DNA of 43,465 nucleotides from a virus. Its lineage: Duplodnaviria > Heunggongvirae > Uroviricota > Caudoviricetes. The position numbers were made by a program, and so were the translations under genes. Where the stretch lies: the IMG/VR virus record IMGVR_UViG_2563366823_000003. One strand, given 5' to 3'. Shown one piece after another: positions 31,652 through 43,465 of this stretch (position 1 is the stretch's first letter; each line of letters opens with the position of its first letter). A model generated the notes under the pieces. That model made no database searches. It saw nothing but the letters and a program-made list of their open reading frames with translations, and was not told where the DNA came from.

Positions 31652-32464
31652 TCACTTTTCCGACACAATACGACTGGAGGAATCGACAATCTGTCGGACA
31701 ATATCCCGGTGCTTGTTCAGCTCCCGCAGCGCGGCGCAGACTCGCTCCCACTTCTGGACATGATTTTTCGCCCGACGAAGTTCGCGGTTTGCCATTTGCA
31801 GCGATGGTAAAATCAGGTCATCCGCTTGCGTTTCGGTGAACGATGGCAGCGACTGCACAATGTCCGCCACAGTTTCTGTTTTAATATCTTCCTGTGTTGC
31901 AGCTTCCTGTACTGGTAACGCAACACATGCAGGCTGAGGAAAGGCTTTACCATCAGTTTCCGCTACCGATGCCGCTTTCGGCTCTGCTGGTAAATTATCG
32001 CCCGGCATGCAGTAACGAAATTTACCGTTCTGATTAACGCGAATCAGACGACCTTTGCTGATTGCCATTGCCAGCGTTGAAGCCACTTTGCGGGATGTTG
32101 TACCGAACAGCGTAGCCAGTTCATCCGCCGTTTGTGGTCCGCGTTGTTCAATCGTCGCGGTTAAATCGCACTCTGAGATTTTCGCTACTGTCGCCGTGGT
32201 GGTTTCTTCCGGCTGTTCTTCTGGCGCTGGCTGTTCCTGCTGAACGTTGTTATCAGCCACACGCCAGGTGTATACGCTTTTATCAACGCAGCCAGCCTTT
32301 TTCAGTTCCCACAGCTCGTTCAGTACTTCTTCACGACTGATATCAAGTCGCGCAGCCAGCTCTACCGACGTGGCTTTTCCCATCGCTTTCAGTGCGTCAA
32401 AAACAGTCTCCATTAAAATTTCCTCCCGGTAAAAATCACTTCGCAATTCCTTGCTGGACGACAT
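31652..32464 (-). CDS. hypothetical protein with two winged-helix-like segments (270 aa)
   Basis: Track ORF; start uncertain (internal Met 18 METVFDALK... would remove the overlap with the DnaC-like gene). Confidence 0.4.
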
Positions 32465-33182
32465 TCGGACGCCAGCTCTCCCAGTTAAAATTCACCCATC
32501 GCCCGCCGTTCATGGTCATGCGATCCATAATCCGCTCGCCGAGCAATGTTTTCATGGCCTCATAGTTCAGGTTTGTCAGCATCCCCACGCTGCGCATCGA
32601 CGCTGTCCGGCGATCAACAATCTGGTGCAGCACCACCTGCTCGTTTTTCGTCTCGCGCTGAATGCCAATTTCATCAAGAACCAGCAGATCCACTTCGCAC
32701 AGCTCCCGCAAAAATTTTTCGCCTGACTGCCCGTCGTCATAGCTGGCGTGCAGGGCGCTCATAACATCAGCCACGGTAACCACAATCACTGTCTGACCGT
32801 CTTTCAGCAGGCGATTCCCGATAGCTGCCGCTAAGTGATTCTTCCCGGTACCAGGTTTTCCGCTGAACGCAAAATTTGTACACCCGGTCATCAGTTCATC
32901 GGCGATGGATTTCGCCTGGCTTAACGCGTACCGCTGGCCGTCGTTCTGCACCTGGTAATTCGCAAACGAGCATTTACGGTGCAACGGCTGGATGCCTGAA
33001 CGATTCAGAATTTTTTCCACCCGCAACTGGCGATTCAGGCGGTTGATCTCCTCGCTACGTTTCTGGCCTTCAGCAAGTTGCCACTCGCGCCACTCCGCTA
33101 CCGTTCTGAATGGGGCGGTTACATGTGGCGGGGTCAGTCGGCGGATGCGTTCCAGAACGCCGCCTGTCGCAATATTTTTCAT
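32436..33182 (-). CDS. DnaC-like helicase loader (IstB-like AAA+ ATPase)
   Basis: Walker [16 protein letters not shown] and Walker B LLVLDEIG; downstream of the O-like initiator. Confidence 0.8.
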
Positions 33183-33188
33183 GGTCCA

Positions 33189-33983
33189 TTACCCCCTGAA
33201 GCCTGGCGGGATCGCACTGTCCGGCAACGAGACAGTGTTAACCTGTCGGAGCAACGTCTCAGGCCGAACACCTTTCGGCGCGAACAGGCCCTGGTATTCA
33301 TTGGCGATGCTGTGTCGAATCACCTGCTCAGGTGTAAAACCCTGCTGACGGAATTTTTCCAGCTCCCGTATCGCCCCGTTAGCGCCCTGCTCCGTTCGAA
33401 TCGGTTTTCGCAATGCCTGCCTGAACTTAACCCACTCATGCCAGAGTGTTTCCGGCAACCAGTCAGGCAGCTCGATAGCCTCCGGCTCGAATTTTTTAGA
33501 CGCTCGTTTTTGGCGAGGGGGATTTAGGGGGAGATCAGTATTTATATCTTCCTCTTCCTCTTCCTCTTCCTCTGGTAACGCTTTTTGATCCGTTTGTGTA
33601 ACGCTGCCAGCGTTACCTTTTCGTTTCAGTTCGCGTATTTTTGTAACTCGCTCGTTTGTAACCGCCCGTTTTTTAGAGCTTTTTCCGTTATGACGTTCAA
33701 AGTTAGGTAGAGAAAGCCCACCGTCATTTTCGACCAGCCATCCAACCTGAATTAACGCATCAGCAAAACCAGCCATAAAAGTGATGCGGTCTATTGCACT
33801 TTTTGTAACGCCGCGAGCGTTACAATCTGCATTACCGTCTATCATTTGTTGATCCGCCCATGCCCAGAAGCGAATAACCTTCCCTAATGCGGCATCTGGA
33901 TCAATATTCAGAATCTCAGCAAGCCTGAATATTTCCGGCTTATCCGGCGTAATAACCTCGAGCTTTATCCAGTTTGAAGCCAT
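33189..33983 (-). CDS. replication initiator, O-like (YdaU/DUF1376-like)
   Basis: 264 aa with central poly-Glu linker, upstream of the DnaC-like gene; carries inverted-repeat motifs. Confidence 0.6.
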   Translation of the reverse strand: MASNWIKLEVITPDKPEIFRLAEILNIDPDAALGKVIRFWAWADQQMIDGNADCNARGVTKSAIDRITFMAGFADALIQVGWLVENDGGLSLPNFERHNGKSSKKRAVTNERVTKIRELKRKGNAGSVTQTDQKALPEEEEEEEEDINTDLPLNPPRQKRASKKFEPEAIELPDWLPETLWHEWVKFRQALRKPIRTEQGANGAIRELEKFRQQGFTPEQVIRHSIANEYQGLFAPKGVRPETLLRQVNTVSLPDSAIPPGFRG

Positions 33984-34060
33984 TTGTTTTCACCTTGTAA
34001 CGCTCGCAGCGTTACATTTAACTGATACCGAACAAAACAATCCGGCACGATTAATTTCAA

Positions 34061-34483
34061 TCAATGCACTACGACAGAATCGCCGGGCGACCCACCACCG
34101 CTGAAATGTGCTTTCCGGTAAACGGCCTGGACTGCATCATCATGCGCATCAATTGCCGTACTCAATGCTTCCTGCGCCGCCAGTAATGCACGGCGTTCCA
34201 GGGTATCGAAGATACAGAGTCGGTGACGCAGCTCGCGCGGAAGAATTGCCAGAACCGCAGGGATCAGTTTCTGAATTTTTTCCCTTTGCGCTTTCGTTTC
34301 ACCTTTCAACCAACGGTGATAGATATTCTGCTGATTGTTCCAGTCCTTGCCTGGTACAAGGGGCAATTCGCCGCCCCCCTGGCGCAGATATTCTTCAGTA
34401 ATTGCGTTAGCGACCCACGCCTGCCCTTTTTCGGCTGCCAGGGCCAACAACACTGATTCGATATGCTCATGCCTGATTTTCAT
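34061..34483 (-). CDS. YdaT-like protein (CII-position regulator)
   Basis: 140-aa ORF immediately downstream of the cro-like gene, same size and position as Rac ydaT (recalled). Confidence 0.5.
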   Translation of the reverse strand: MKIRHEHIESVLLALAAEKGQAWVANAITEEYLRQGGGELPLVPGKDWNNQQNIYHRWLKGETKAQREKIQKLIPAVLAILPRELRHRLCIFDTLERRALLAAQEALSTAIDAHDDAVQAVYRKAHFSGGGSPGDSVVVH

Positions 34484-37412: not shown

Positions 37413-40067
37413 ATGAGCACCGATAAACAAGTTTACCCACTGTATTACGAAGCAAAAAATGACAAAGTAAGAAAACGTCTCGGTATTAAAGGCGGTTTCT
37501 ACTGGGCTGAAGCGAAAAAATTATCCATTGCCATCTCCCGTGGTGCTGTTGCGATTGACGATGCTGGCTACGATGAAGATGACTTTAAAAAACCTGTTCG
37601 CGTCAATTTGCCCGTTGTTGATGACCTTCCACCAGAAGGCGTATTTGATACGGAATTCTGCAACCGTTACGAAAAAGGCGGGGAAGATGGCATCACAATG
37701 GTATTTGTCGCGCCCTCACCCTCTGCGCAGGACAAACCAGCCAGCACTGACAATACCAATGTTAATGGCGAAGACATGACGGAGATTGAGGAAAATATGC
37801 TACTCCCGATTTCCGGTCAGGAGCTGCCCATTCGCTGGCTTGCTCAACACGGCAGCGAAAAACCGGTAACGCACGTTTCACGCGACGAACTCCAGGCATT
37901 ACACATTGCACGGGCTGAAGAACTACCAGCTGTTACTGCCCTGGCTGTTTCCCACAAAACCAGCCTGCTCGACCCGCTGGAAATTCGCGATCTCCATAAA
38001 CTGGTGCGTGATACTGACAAAGTTTTCCCTAATCCAGGCAATTCAAGCCTGGGGCTGATGACTGCTTTTTTCGAAGCATACCTGGACGCAGACTACACCG
38101 ATCGCGGTCTGCTGACAAAAGAGTGGATGAAAGGAAATCGTGTTTCACGCATCACGCGCACGGCTTCCGGTGCTAATGCTGGCGGCGGGAACCTCACCGA
38201 TCGCGGCGAAGGTTTCGTTCACGATCTGACGTCACTGGCGCGCGACGTAGCCACTGGCGTACTGGCTCGTTCAATGGACGTGGACATTTATAACCTTCAT
38301 CCGGCACACGCTAAACGTGTCGAGGAAATTATCGCTGAAAATAAACCGCCCTTTTCTGTTTTCCACGACAAATTCATCACCATGCCTGGCGGGCTGGATT
38401 ATTCCCGCGCCATCGTGGTTGCTTCCGTAAAAGAAGCACCAATTGGGATCGAGGTCATCCCCGCACACGTCACTGAATATCTGAACAAAGTACTGACTGA
38501 AACCGATCATGCCAACCCTGATCCGGAAATTGTGGATATTGCCTGCGGTCGCTCCTCTGCCCCAATGCCGCAGCGTGTAACAGAAGAAGAAAAACAGGAT
38601 GATGAAGAAAAACCGCAACCATCTTGCGCAATGGCAGATGAACAGGCAACGGCTGAAACAGTGGAACCGGATGCAACTGAACATCATCAGGACACGCAGC
38701 CGCTGGATGCTCAGTCACAGGTAAATTCTGTTGATACGAAATATCAGAAACTGCGGGCAGAACTCCATGAAGCCCGGAAAAACATTCCGCCCCAAAATCC
38801 TGTCGATGCAGACAAATTACTGGCTGCCTCTCGCGGAGAATTTGTTGAAGGGATTAGCGACCCGAATGATCCGAAATGGGTTAAGGGGATCCAGACCCGC
38901 GATTCTGTGTACCAGCATCAGCCAGAAACGGAACAGAACGACCTAAAATCGGAACAAAACGGCCAAAATGCGCGACAAAATGAACCAGAAGCGCAACAGG
39001 AACTGGAAAAAGTCTGCCATGCCTGCGGTCAGTCTGATGGAGATAACTGCCCTGATTGTGGCGCGGTGATGGGCGACATCACGTATCAGGAAACCTTTAA
39101 TGAAGAAAATCTGGATGAATCTCAGGAAAAAGATCCGGAGGAAATGGAAGGCCCTGAACATCCGCACAATGAGAATGCTGGCAGCGATCCGCATCGCGAT
39201 TGCAGTGATGAAACTGGCGAAGTCGCAGATCCCGTAATCGCAGGAGACATAGAGCCTGGTATTTATTACGGAATTTCGAATGAGAATTACCACGCGGGTC
39301 CCGGTGTCAGTAAGTCTCAGCTCGACGACATTGCTGATACTCCGGCGCTGTATTTGTGGCGTAAAAATGCCCCAGTGGACACCACAAAGACAAAAACGCT
39401 CGATTTAGGAACCGCTTTCCACTGCCGTGTACTTGAACCGGAAGAATTCAGTAACCGCTTTATCGTGGCACCTGAATTTAACCGCCGTACAACCGCCGGA
39501 AAAGAAGAAGAGAAAGCGTTTCTGATGGAATGCGCAAGCACAGGAAAAACGGTTATCACTGCCGAAGAAGGCCGGAAAATTGAACTCATGTATCAGAGCG
39601 TTATGGCTTTGCCGCTGGGTCAATGGCTTGTTGAAAGCGCCGGACACGCTGAATCATCAATTTACTGGGAAGATCCTGAAACAGGAATTTTGTGTCGGTG
39701 CCGTCCGGACAAAATTATCCCTGAATTTCACTGGATCATGGACGTGAAAACCACAGCGGATATTCAACGATTCAAAACCGCTTATTACGACTACCGCTAT
39801 CACGTTCAGGATGCATTCTACAGTGATGGTTATGAAGCACAGTTTGGAGTGCAGCCAACTTTCGTTTTTCTGGTTGCCAGCACAACTATTGAATGCGGAC
39901 GTTATCCGGTTGAAATTTTCATGATGGGCGAAGAAGCAAAACTGGCAGGCCAGCAGGAATATCACCGCAATCTGAGGACCCTGGCTGACTGCCTGAATAC
40001 CGATGAATGGCCAGCTATTAAAACGTTATCACTGCCCCGCTGGGCTAAGGAGTATGCAAATGACTAA
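37413..40067 (+). CDS. recE: exonuclease VIII (RecE)
   Basis: 884 aa; C-terminal nuclease domain [22 protein letters not shown]...DVKTTADIQ...YHVQDAFY; immediately upstream of recT with ATGA overlap. Confidence 0.85.
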
Positions 40068-40913: not shown

Positions 40914-41120
40914 ATGACAAAAATTATGAGATATGACGATGTTAAACCATGTCCGTTTTGTGGTTGTCCATCTGTTACGGTGAAAGCAATTTCAGGATAT
41001 TACCGGGCAAAATGCAACGGATGCGAATCCCGAACTGGCTATGGTGGAAGTGAAAAAGAAGCGCTCGAAAGATGGAATAAACGAACCACTGAAAATATTA
41101 ATGGAGGCGTTCATGTATAA
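40914..41120 (+). CDS. ralR: restriction alleviation protein Lar/RalR
   Basis: MTKIMRYDDVKPCPFCGCPSVTVKAISGYYRAKCNGCESRTGYGGSEKEALERWNKRT matches recalled Lar. Confidence 0.7.
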   Translation: MTKIMRYDDVKPCPFCGCPSVTVKAISGYYRAKCNGCESRTGYGGSEKEALERWNKRTTENINGGVHV

Positions 41121-41301
41121 AATTACTGCTACAATTGAAAAGGAAGGTGGCACTCCTACTAACTGGACAAGATATTCAAAATCTAAACTAACGAAATCAG
41201 AATGCGAAAAAATGCTCTCAGGGAAAAAAGAAGCAGGCGTTTCCAGAGAGCAGAAAGTAAAACTGATAAATTTTAATTGCGAGAAACTTCTGTCATCGTG
41301 A
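41113..41301 (+). CDS. small hypothetical protein (62 aa)
   Basis: ATG 41113 overlapping the lar stop; the track start upstream is non-ATG. Confidence 0.4.
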   Translation: MYKITATIEKEGGTPTNWTRYSKSKLTKSECEKMLSGKKEAGVSREQKVKLINFNCEKLLSS

Positions 41302-41407
41302 GTTACATCATATCCAAATTAGAACTTCATAGCTGATTATTAAAAATCAACCACACCCGCCAGTATTCTGTATATTTACTGGCGGTCATATCGTAAGAGG
41401 TATGGCA

Positions 41408-41689
41408 ATGAATCTTGTGACACTCAAAACTTGGGGAAGACTCAGATATCCGGATAACCCACCATCAATATCAACACTGAGACGATGGGCAAGGAATGGA
41501 AACATTTATCCTGCACCTGAACTACACGGGAGGAGTTACAGGGTGGTTCCGGAGGCTTTCTATATCAACCCAAATAAGGTTGATACCGATATAACACACC
41601 ACCAGCCTAATGGGCGACAAGGGAGAGACAGTCCGTTAATGGAGAAGTTAAAACATGCAGCGGAAAAAATACGATCCCAATTTGCCTAG
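41408..41689 (+). CDS. xis: excisionase (Xis-like)
   Basis: Small basic ORF overlapping the integrase start; AAGAGG 8 nt upstream of ATG 41408. Confidence 0.6.
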   Translation: MNLVTLKTWGRLRYPDNPPSISTLRRWARNGNIYPAPELHGRSYRVVPEAFYINPNKVDTDITHHQPNGRQGRDSPLMEKLKHAAEKIRSQFA

Positions 41690-42731
41690 AAACTTAACAT
41701 ATCGAAGGAGAGACAAAGCATATTACTGGCGCAACCCTCTCACGAAAGAAGAATTTACACTAGGTAAAATTTCAAGAAGAGATGCAGTAGCGCAGGCAAT
41801 TGAAGCAAATCATTATATATACAAAAACTACTCTCCTGCTGCCTTAATTGAAAAGCTGAAAGGGTTCGACTCATTTACTATGGCAGACTGGATTGAACGT
41901 TACAAAACGATTCTTATAAGGAGAAAAGTGTCCAGAAATACTTATAAAATTCGGGTAAATCAACTGGAGACAATAAAAGAAAAATTGGGAGGGATTTTAC
42001 TGACAGAAATAACCACTCGCCATATTGCTGAGTTTCTTGATTTGTGGATTGAAGGAGGGAAAAACACGATGGCAGGATCAATGCGTTCTGTGTTATCTGA
42101 TATGTTCCGCGAGGCCATTGTTGAAGGACGTATATCTCAAAATCCAGTAACGCCAACAAGAGCACCGAAAATAGTAGTTACAAGAGAACGACTGAAACTA
42201 AAGACATACAACTGCATCAGGGAGGCAGCAGATCAACTTCCGGCATGGTTCCCATTAGCTATGGATTTAGCCCTTGTAACAGGACAACGTCGCGAAGACA
42301 TAACGAATATGCGGTTCAGTGATATTTATGATGATCGTCTCCACATCAGGCAAATTAAGACAGGAATGATGATTGCTATCCCCCTGTCACTCAGACTTCC
42401 TGTCGCTGGTCTACGGCTTGGTACAGTAGTTGAACGCTGCCGCCTGGTAAGCCGGGGAGATTATCTAATCAGTGCCGGGATTAGAAAAAACAGCCCTGAC
42501 GGCAGCATTCACCCGGATGGCCTGACAAAAAAATTTGTCGCAGCCAGAAAATTAACAGGTATCCAGTTCAGTGAAAACCCACCAACTTTTCACGAGATCA
42601 GAAGTCTGGCTGGACGATTGTACAAAGAAACATGTGGAGAAGAATTTGCTCAGCGTCTACTTGGCCACACATCGGAGAAGACAACAAAAATGTATCTTGA
42701 TGAGAGAGAAAAAACGTACTTACTGCTCTGA
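41655..42731 (+). CDS. int: tyrosine integrase (lambda Int family)
   Basis: 358 aa; collinear with recalled lambda Int ([40 protein letters not shown] catalytic region); GGAGAAG upstream. Confidence 0.9.
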
Positions 42732-42863
42732 TTTTAACGTAAATGGATTGTTAAATGCATTTTGGTTGTGATATAACCAAAAAAGACCGGAATACAGAAA
42801 TTCGAGTAAATTTCGGGGAATTTCGGGGGAGACGTTTGCAACTGATTGATTTTAAATACAATT

Positions 42864-42898
42864 AAAAAAAGACCGAATACGATTCCTGTATTCGGTCC
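42864..42898. repeat. attR: right copy of the att core inside the sdsR terminator stem
   Basis: aaaaaaagaccgaatacgattcctgtattcggtcc matches 1068-1098. Confidence 0.7.
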
Positions 42899-42966
42899 AG
42901 GGAAATGGCTCTTGGGAGAGAGCCGTGCGCTAAAAGTTGGCATTAATGCAGGCTTAGTTGCCTTGC
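42864..42966 (-). ncRNA. sdsR: SdsR (RyeB) small RNA; antisense RyeA/SraC overlaps on the plus strand
   Basis: Minus-strand gcaaggcaactaagcctgcattaatgccaacttttagcgcacggctctctcccaagagccatttccctggaccgaatacaggaatcgtattcggtcttttttt matches recalled SdsR incl. terminator. Confidence 0.8.
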
Positions 42967-43123
42967 TCTTTAAGAATAGATGACGACGCCAGGTTTTCCA
43001 GTTTGCGTGCAAAATGGTCAATAAAAAGCGTGGTGGTCATCAGCTTAAATGTTAAAAACCGCCCGTTCTGGTGAAAGAACTGAGGCGGTTTTTTATTGGA
43101 AATCAAAAGGCTATTTTAGGTAA

Positions 43124-43465
43124 TTAACAGAGTTTTTCAGCTCGCTCTATAAACGGTGCCAGACTCATTTTTTCGCCGGGATTGTTAGGATCATCAATCT
43201 GAATCACCGAAATGGGTTGGGCTTTAGTCTTCCCACTGGCAACTTCCTTTTGTGCGATATCGTTTAAAGGATACTGCACGAGGGTACTTGGGTTAATGAC
43301 ATACAAAGCATTACCCGGTCGGCAAGTCAGCATCACCTCTTCGCGATTAAACGCCCATTTGTCTTTACCCACTTCAAAACGGCTGACGGTAATCACCTGC
43401 GGTGCCGCCAGCGCAGCTGCAGAACTGGTGAGTAACAGAAACGCCAGAATACTTTTTCTCATCAT
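43124..43465 (-). CDS. yebY: periplasmic protein YebY (DUF2511)
   Basis: 113 aa with signal peptide [22 protein letters not shown]; near-identical to recalled K-12 YebY; start codon at the window end. Confidence 0.85.

Follow-up and report, generated by a model that had tools for sequence, protein, structure and literature searches.

In bacteriophage lambda the replication origin lies within gene O, dimers of the O protein bind inverted repeats, and a neighbouring A + T-rich region opens (PMC5043065). The lambda sequence carries four annotated iterons inside O, at 39034–39118, and these are followed on the sense strand by the purine-rich stretch ACAAAAGAAAAAAGAAAAGA, which encodes TKEKRKD in the linker of O. 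A comparable arrangement is described here in the replication initiator gene of a virus of the Caudoviricetes (IMG/VR record IMGVR_UViG_2563366823_000003). The DNA analysed comprises 43,465 nt and is termed the window in its whole length. The gene (33189–33983, minus strand, 264 amino acids) contains a hexanucleotide repeat that encodes a run of glutamates. Palindromic sites, a single half-site, a purine block to which the repeat belongs and an adjoining AT-rich stretch are proposed to form a phage replication origin inside the initiator gene, with the repeat doubling as linker codons. The probability of this reading is put at roughly 60%.

The arrangement would be a variant of the lambda-type intragenic origin and not a new kind of system. 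Two properties of such origins were found in the window: repeated site motifs within the initiator's own gene, and an easily melted purine-/A + T-rich stretch beside them. As in lambda ori, the inverted repeats presumed to serve the initiator lie partly in the inter-domain linker, and the stretch of low duplex stability that follows them is purine-rich on the sense strand and read as charged residues. The gene also has the same position as O, after cII-like and cro-like genes and before a helicase-loader gene.

There are clear differences as well. No sequence homology with lambda O was detectable, and a comparison with the Phage_rep_O profile gave no match. The window has 19-bp palindromes spread over ∼420 bp together with single half-sites, whereas lambda has four adjacent iterons. 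The purine block of the window family is GA-rich (40–50% G + C), while that of lambda is ∼80% A + T. The partner protein is a DnaC-like ATPase in the window and P in lambda, and in the window family the origin function is deduced from sequence.

Palindromic sites and half-sites

Three exact 19-bp palindromes of the form GTAACGC-N5-GCGTTAC are found within 420 bp, and none is present elsewhere in the window. Site 1 (GTAACGC-TCGCA-GCGTTAC, 33997–34015) is upstream of the ATG and overlaps the approach to the ribosome-binding site. Site 2 (GTAACGC-CGCGA-GCGTTAC, 33805–33823) is read as CNARGVT and corresponds to a loop of low predicted confidence within the N-terminal domain, residues 49–57. Site 3 (GTAACGC-TGCCA-GCGTTAC, 33598–33616) is read as GNAGSVT in the linker. 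The coding palindromes thus translate to the peptide motif NAxxVT. A single half-site, GCGTTAC (33575–33581, minus strand), lies directly 5′ of the repeat tract, where it provides the codons GCG TTA CC for Ala-Leu-(Pro). Two degenerate direct half-sites, TGTAAC on the plus strand and GTTACA on the coding strand, are present at 33642–33647 and 33657–33662 (minus strand). The clustering is also evident from the heptamer GTAACGC, of which seven of the 13 copies in the window fall in 33575–34015; 3.95 would be expected for the window as a whole.

Relatives were chosen by protein similarity and comprise 27 genome loci and 7 phage loci. Their exact palindromes stand at about −40, +148/160 and +340–390 relative to the ATG. 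Position-conserved palindromes are found in phages of Enterobacterales, Xanthomonas, Xylella and Ralstonia, and in metagenome-assembled genomes (MAGs) of Planctomycetes and Saccharibacteria, at protein identities of 35–50%. Almost all half-sites of each 5-kb relative locus are within the initiator gene, and half-sites also occur in 12-bp arrays.

Across 152 sites, taken from 96 distinct viral contigs, no change was seen in the core TAACG...CGTTA, and the central 5 nt are free to vary (63 variants). Where the palindrome arms have changed, 76 pairs are broken and 6 are compensated, which argues for a DNA site of a dimeric protein and against an RNA hairpin. The palindromes were also considered as RNA hairpins in their own right; this is excluded by the same count and by the existence of single half-sites.

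Two further observations concern these sites. Six contigs assigned to Planctomycetes, Saccharibacteria and Gallionella carry homologues with both palindromes and purine block, at 35–50% identity; the assignments are as given, and binning contamination is possible. On the plus strand, antisense to the gene, palindrome 3 together with CTTTTCGTTT (33598–33626) scores as terminator-like. One such site was found against 1.6 expected from shuffled sequences, and the score is probably incidental.

A purine block conserved as DNA

In distant relatives the last half-site leads into the sequence GCG TTA CCT AGA GAA GAG AAG AGA AGA GAA GAT (A/G)TA. The block of the distant phages is A(GAGAA)4, translated ALPREEKRREDI (REEKRRED). 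Its sequence does not differ between phages of Xanthomonas (64% G + C), Xylella (65%) and Ralstonia (62%), Salmonella phage epsilon15 and a Gallionella MAG. The enterobacterial clade has the form TTA CCA (GAGGAA)n GAT ATA. On this comparison the window tract is read as the enterobacterial version of a block made up of purines alone, which follows the last half-site and whose conservation is at the level of DNA. (GAGAA)4 is likely to be the ancestral form of the repeat. A 5-nt unit can change in copy number only with a frameshift, whereas a 6-nt unit can do so freely, and this would be why the tract is polymorphic only in its enterobacterial form.

Codon choice is the evidence that carries this interpretation. 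The loci for the codon test were those chosen by protein similarity, and the 12 codons starting from the Leu of an invariant Leu-Pro were counted, so that the test is not circular; a version based on seed-selected IMG/VR loci was partly circular and was replaced. Arginine is encoded by AGA in 30 of 30 cases within the block, compared with 45 of 488 elsewhere in the same open reading frames. Leucine is encoded by TTA in 28 of 31 cases (68/488 elsewhere) and isoleucine by ATA in 13 of 14 (67/353 elsewhere). In the 30 nt after the Pro codon the purine fraction is 0.73–1.0, against ∼0.57 for the open reading frames. In pairs that are less than 60% identical, synonymous-codon identity is 0.8–1.0 at the sites, at GCG, at TTA and in the tract, over a background of ∼0.2–0.5; for the half-site codons the values at synonymous positions are 1.0 for GCG and 0.91 for TTA.

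An IMG/VR scan with the seed TTACCTAGAGAAGAGAAGAG, the second of two such scans, gave 118 contigs of 37–68% G + C, and in most of these the block runs on past the seed as ...AAGAGAAGA. At the IMG/VR block loci, GCG precedes the block in 99 of 106 cases and an exact palindrome is found at most 450 nt upstream in 76 of 106. Past the block the sequence diverges at once, while conservation is seen in the N-terminal part of the gene.

These data bear directly on a simpler explanation, namely that the tract is a protein feature and nothing else: a flexible acidic linker that drifts neutrally by slippage, the DNA itself being without function. In its favour are the predicted disorder of the region, the acidic runs after the invariant Leu-Pro in all enterobacterial relatives and the toleration of 2 to 16 residues. 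Outside the enterobacterial clade, however, the peptide is REEKRRED or EKRRDRDRE and its net charge is near zero (∼0 in the distant form against about −9 in the enterobacterial form), yet the purine-rich DNA persists, and so do its rare codons (TTA, AGA, ATA). Synonymous sites are conserved, and the block always follows the conserved half-site. This explanation is accordingly considered unlikely. The earlier note on this DNA, made from the sequence alone, had regarded the tract as a protein feature only; the coding of a Glu linker holds, but it is the purine DNA block that is conserved and not its poly-Glu reading.

A role at the RNA level has also been considered, in which Shine-Dalgarno-like GAGG repeats pause ribosomes or tune the translation or stability of the initiator/loader mRNA. 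The GAGGAA repeats do hold GAGG and AGGA motifs that resemble a Shine-Dalgarno sequence, but the widespread pentamer GAGAA lacks the GG, and the palindrome pairs are broken rather than compensated. A scan of 32900–34300 against Rfam gave no family match and a single miRNA match at chance level, which likewise counts against this proposal. It is considered very improbable.

The least stable 30-bp duplex of the gene and its flanks, a candidate unwinding spot, is at 33521–33550, directly 3′ of the tract. On the coding strand it reads AAGATATAAATACTGATCTCCCCCTAAATC and begins with AAGATATAAATACTGATC. Among 13 loci scanned for stability over the gene and 300 nt on each side, eight, the window included, have their least stable 30-mer at the block or directly beside it.

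The hexanucleotide repeat and its length variation

The tract had been described in the earlier note as a CTTCCT repeat at 33541–33580. Inside that span Tandem Repeats Finder gives a perfect period-6 array at 33547–33573, with the consensus TCTTCC, 4.5 copies on the plus strand and 100% matches. The coding strand (minus) reads (GAGGAA)4 and has a purine-only run of 27 nt. Translation of the open reading frame confirms the eight glutamates that had been reported: the codons of Glu138–145 are GAG GAA four times over (33572 to 33549), and GAT ATA AAT follow. The local protein sequence around the tract is QKALPEEEEEEEEDINTDL. The assignment of the poly-Glu to a linker is also borne out, as residues 96–162 are predicted to be disordered (predicted local distance difference test, pLDDT, <50).

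No other perfect period-6 stretch in the window is as long as the 27-nt array; in 300 shuffles the mean was 13.4 and the maximum 17. Nor does any other run of purines only or pyrimidines only reach its length (the runner-up has 19 nt), yet shuffled sequences reach 33 nt, and the length of the purine-only run is by itself unremarkable. Two further, imperfect tandem repeats were detected in the window by the same program, at 2826–2889 (period 27, 2.4 copies, 78% matches) and at 38929–38969 (period 21, 2.0 copies, 85% matches).

A perfect tandem repeat within an open reading frame, with a unit that is a multiple of 3 nt, is a coding microsatellite. The tract is such a microsatellite, in frame and polymorphic in length, and the repeat and its polymorphism are ordinary. 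Like other in-frame coding microsatellites, it has whole-unit alleles that recur on identical backgrounds and a stable interrupted allele. It differs from ordinary ones in that the repeat overlaps a DNA block that appears to be conserved for non-coding reasons.

The initiator gene is present at a coverage of at least 80% in 680 complete E. coli genomes. Codon numbers were read from the span of the match to a 241-nt query around the tract in an evenly spaced sample (56 of 643 genomes); eight codons were found in 4 genomes, six in 49 and four in 3. In an alignment of eight loci with the window, gaps of 6 nt and 12 nt fall exactly within the tract. Close protein homologues have 2, 4, 6, 8 or 10 glutamates, and over the close relatives as a whole the number ranges from 2 to 16. 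A scan of IMG/VR with the seed GCGTTACCAGAGGAAGAG gave more than 120 loci. Among 75 near-identical loci of the window's own subtype there are 4 codons in nine, 6 in 48, 8 in 14, and 10, 12, 14 and 16 codons in one locus each.

Length changes are found even where the flanks have hardly changed. When loci were clustered by their 509 nt of flanking sequence, with no more than 2 differences allowed, 7 of the 13 clusters included more than one tract length, and one of them has members with 6, 6, 10, 12 and 16 codons. Three loci with flanks identical to those of the window have 6 codons; the 8-codon allele of the window would therefore have arisen recently by the addition of one unit. The interrupted allele GAGGAAGAGAAAGAGGAA (EEEKEE, O157 type) has 6 codons in 13 of 13 loci, and this constant length fits stabilization by the interruption. 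The recurrence on near-identical backgrounds indicates a hot spot rather than one old event, and the changes in tract length are judged from these comparisons to be recurrent and recent, as replication slippage would give. The expectation of a slippage-prone tract whose length varies between isolates is thereby borne out by differences of whole 6-nt units; the comparison proposed for it, of tract length across relatives, did not show the invariance that had been named as refuting it.

A perfect simple-sequence repeat with frequent length changes might suggest a contingency locus that switches the initiator on and off by phase variation. The unit is of 6 nt, however, and all 75 alleles differ by whole units and keep the reading frame. 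The frame is therefore never lost, and the polymorphism is of the slippage type and not a phase switch. A promoter scan revealed no promoter-like site, so that neither a frame switch nor a switch in promoter spacing was found. The unit size and the allele spectrum exclude phase variation. Two initiator copies, in strains M1 and CB209, are annotated as frameshifted pseudogenes, but their tracts differ from that of the window by whole 6-nt units only and are not the cause of the pseudogenes. The copy of strain M1 has a 1-nt deletion within the half-site GGTAACGC, which adjoins the tract and lies outside it.

Larger rearrangements are seen next to the tract in some relatives. A common variant of the initiator (374–380 amino acids; proteins P0011–P0058) has an insert of ∼112 amino acids right after the poly-Glu/DINTDL sequence. 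The insert reads THPKPF...REYPVPERGDGCGGRIDIVVTDRNGVRCGIELD..., its insertion point corresponds to about position 33531 of the window, and it has no match in Pfam. The variant, too, displays the series of 4, 6, 8 and 10 glutamates. A truncated initiator gene without its N-terminus is found in E. coli O26 and other strains, with the break at or next to the tract. In the locus of E. coli O26 RM8426 (1201–2762) an IS3-family element begins ∼55 nt past the end of the truncated gene. A mosaic joint was considered as the reason why homology to the O26 genes annotated as partial YdaU ends at the tract, but an IS3 insertion was found instead. The frequent end of BLAST matches at query position 362 is due to this IS3-associated truncation in O26 and others.

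The initiator protein and its gene neighbourhood

The initiator gene is YdaU-like, and its product aligns end to end with PHROG 2509, ‘replication initiation protein’ (E 3.8e-91, residues 1–264 on profile positions 1–277). A second profile, phrog_678 ‘replication initiation O-like’, matches residues 77–238 only (E 1.2e-26). In Pfam no family was found at E ≤ 0.01, neither Phage_rep_O, the lambda O family, nor DUF1376, and the C-terminal part gave no usable match. Some near-identical genes are labelled ‘phage replication initiator YdaU family protein’ in RefSeq. The term ‘O-like’ initiator, used in the earlier note, is supported as regards role and gene position, but not as homology to lambda O; since no Pfam match exists, the likeness is one of analogy.

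An AlphaFold2 model, built on an alignment of 20 sequences, predicts three parts. Amino acids 11–95 (33699–33953, minus strand) form a confidently modelled N-terminal winged-helix-like domain, which is presumed to bind the sites. Amino acids 96–162 (33498–33698, minus strand) are of low confidence and form the linker that is predicted to be disordered. It contains a basic helix (107–121), site 3, the half-site, the poly-Glu and a Pro-rich stretch. The C-terminal part (33192–33497, minus strand) consists of a helical domain (residues 163–243) and a DnaT-like tail, VNTVSLPDSAIPPGFRG, and is shared with the YdaU of the K-12 Rac prophage.

The relationship to Rac is close in some respects. In both, ydaS/ydaT-like genes are followed by an initiator gene and then by a DnaC-like ydaV gene, and the C-terminal half of K-12 Rac ydaU is 94.6% identical in nucleotide sequence over 258 nt, from PPLNPPR to the IPPGFRG tail. 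K-12 YdaU has, however, a DUF1376-type N-terminal domain that is unrelated in sequence and lacks poly-Glu, whereas the window protein has no DUF1376 match. Of the features of the YdaU family, the window protein thus shows the C-terminal domain and the position before ydaV and lacks the DUF1376 N-terminal domain. The tract would travel with the N-terminal domain and site module, as neither this domain nor a poly-Glu run is present in K-12 YdaU.

The tail of E. coli DnaT, VNTVSEPDSQIPPGFRG, closely matches that of the window protein, and relatives of the latter are annotated as ‘primosomal protein I’ or ‘DnaT-like ssDNA-binding domain’. The match to the NCBIfam DnaT model covers residues 246–264 only and, at E 0.0065, is far below the cut-off. 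For the whole domain the match is marginal (profile against PDB 2ru8, E 0.19), with a near-identical tail motif. DnaT differs from the window protein in that it lacks the winged-helix N-terminal domain as well as the sites and the poly-Glu.

Directly downstream of the initiator is a gene for a DnaC-like helicase loader of the YdaV type (32436–33182, minus strand; PRK12377, E 1.2e-153). Upstream are a YdaT/cII-like gene, a cro-like helix-turn-helix gene and a divergent gene for a cI-like repressor. The initiator, the DnaC-like loader and the cII/YdaT-, cro- and cI-like genes together point to the replication module of a Rac-like lambdoid prophage.

Some observations concern the remainder of the prophage. 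A gene for a 270-amino-acid DUF1627 protein (31652–32464, minus strand; E 5.5e-100) follows the helicase loader, and its counterpart in NZ_CP074756.1 is annotated as frameshifted. In NZ_CP074756.1 the 795 nt of the initiator gene are 100% identical to those of the window, and the rest of the prophage aligns in blocks of 93–97% with gaps; this block-wise similarity indicates that the window comes from a mosaic relative. By similarity, the region 40941–43465 carries ralR, an excisionase gene, an integrase gene and yebY, which would place the prophage end at ∼42.8–43.1 kb. No tRNA was found in the window by ARAGORN. A transfer of the NZ_CP074756.1 annotation to the whole window was dropped, as the similarity is only mosaic and ARAGORN found no tRNA.

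A putative origin within the initiator gene

The following mechanism can be envisaged. The palindromes would be the targets of dimers of the N-terminal winged-helix domain, and strand opening would take place in the purine- and AT-rich sequence beside the last half-site. Recruitment of the DnaC-like loader, together with DnaB, would fall to the C-terminal domain. The binding, the opening and the activity as an origin are predictions from sequence. The same bases would be used twice, as codons of an acidic linker and as a purine-rich origin element, and slippage alleles may persist because both uses tolerate a change in length.

Another interpretation of the same elements is that the palindromes are operators for the initiator's own operon and that the block is kept for some other reason, for example as a junction at which C-terminal modules are exchanged by homologous recombination. 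One palindrome is indeed just upstream of the ribosome-binding site. Divergence sets in right after the block while the N-terminal part is conserved, the 112-amino-acid insert and the IS3 element adjoin the tract in some relatives, and C-terminal domains vary between family members. Two of the three palindromes and all single half-sites are, however, deep in the coding sequence, which would be odd for operators, and half-sites are found in iteron-like 12-bp arrays. A recombination junction would not account for a 33-nt block being under purifying selection in hosts that range from 37 to 68% G + C, and the duplex-stability minimum is left unexplained. This interpretation appears quite improbable.

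Several points weigh against an intragenic origin. No account of such an origin was found in the literature on YdaU, oriJ, DUF1376 and the site sequence. The palindromes are ∼200 bp apart, unlike the compact iteron array of lambda, and site 1, just upstream of the start codon, could serve autoregulation instead. Codons for Glu and Lys and the AGR codons for Arg are all purine, such that a charged linker is purine-rich by default, and a constraint on DNA is separated from one on protein only by the evidence of codon choice. The IMG/VR sets were picked by a DNA seed and are partly circular as evidence, and the loci are not phylogenetically independent, so that Fisher P values overstate significance. 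The window tract itself has 50% G + C, and the truly unstable part is the adjoining AT-rich piece. Since lengths from 6 to 48 nt are tolerated, the tract does not act as a spacer of precise size. The formation of H-DNA is ruled out as the property that has been conserved: the window tract is not a mirror repeat, its longest one being 5 nt, compared with 21 nt in the pentamer form and 16 nt in lambda.

A more far-reaching proposal starts from the intragenic origin. The ∼33-nt block, GCGTTACC(T/A) followed by the GA repeat, might together with dispersed palindromes define an unrecognized, cross-phylum class of phage origins in winged-helix initiator genes. The GA repeat might then be a sequence-specific opening element, either a single-strand motif for the initiator like the DnaA-trios or an anchor for a stable purine-RNA:DNA hybrid that arises as the gene is transcribed. 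The enterobacterial change from a 5-nt to a 6-nt unit might have freed the length of the repeat to tune origin firing between otherwise identical prophages. This proposal is tentative and, on balance, doubtful.

Implications

The conservation across phyla of sites and purine block in an initiator gene appears not to have been described before. As judged from sequence comparison, the origin-like architecture is moderately interesting when set against an ordinary repeat. It provides a concrete origin prediction, with sites, opening element and loader, for a widespread initiator family that has no Pfam model and for which no described origin was found. The repeat itself evolves fast and can serve as a marker to tell apart Rac-like E. 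coli prophages that are otherwise identical, including those of O157 and other pathogenic lineages.

The locus would also represent a case of overlapping constraints, in which a DNA element imposes rare codons on a protein linker and even determines which amino acids it contains, across hosts of 37–68% G + C. If tract length affects firing, prophages could differ heritably in inducibility or copy number by this simple means.

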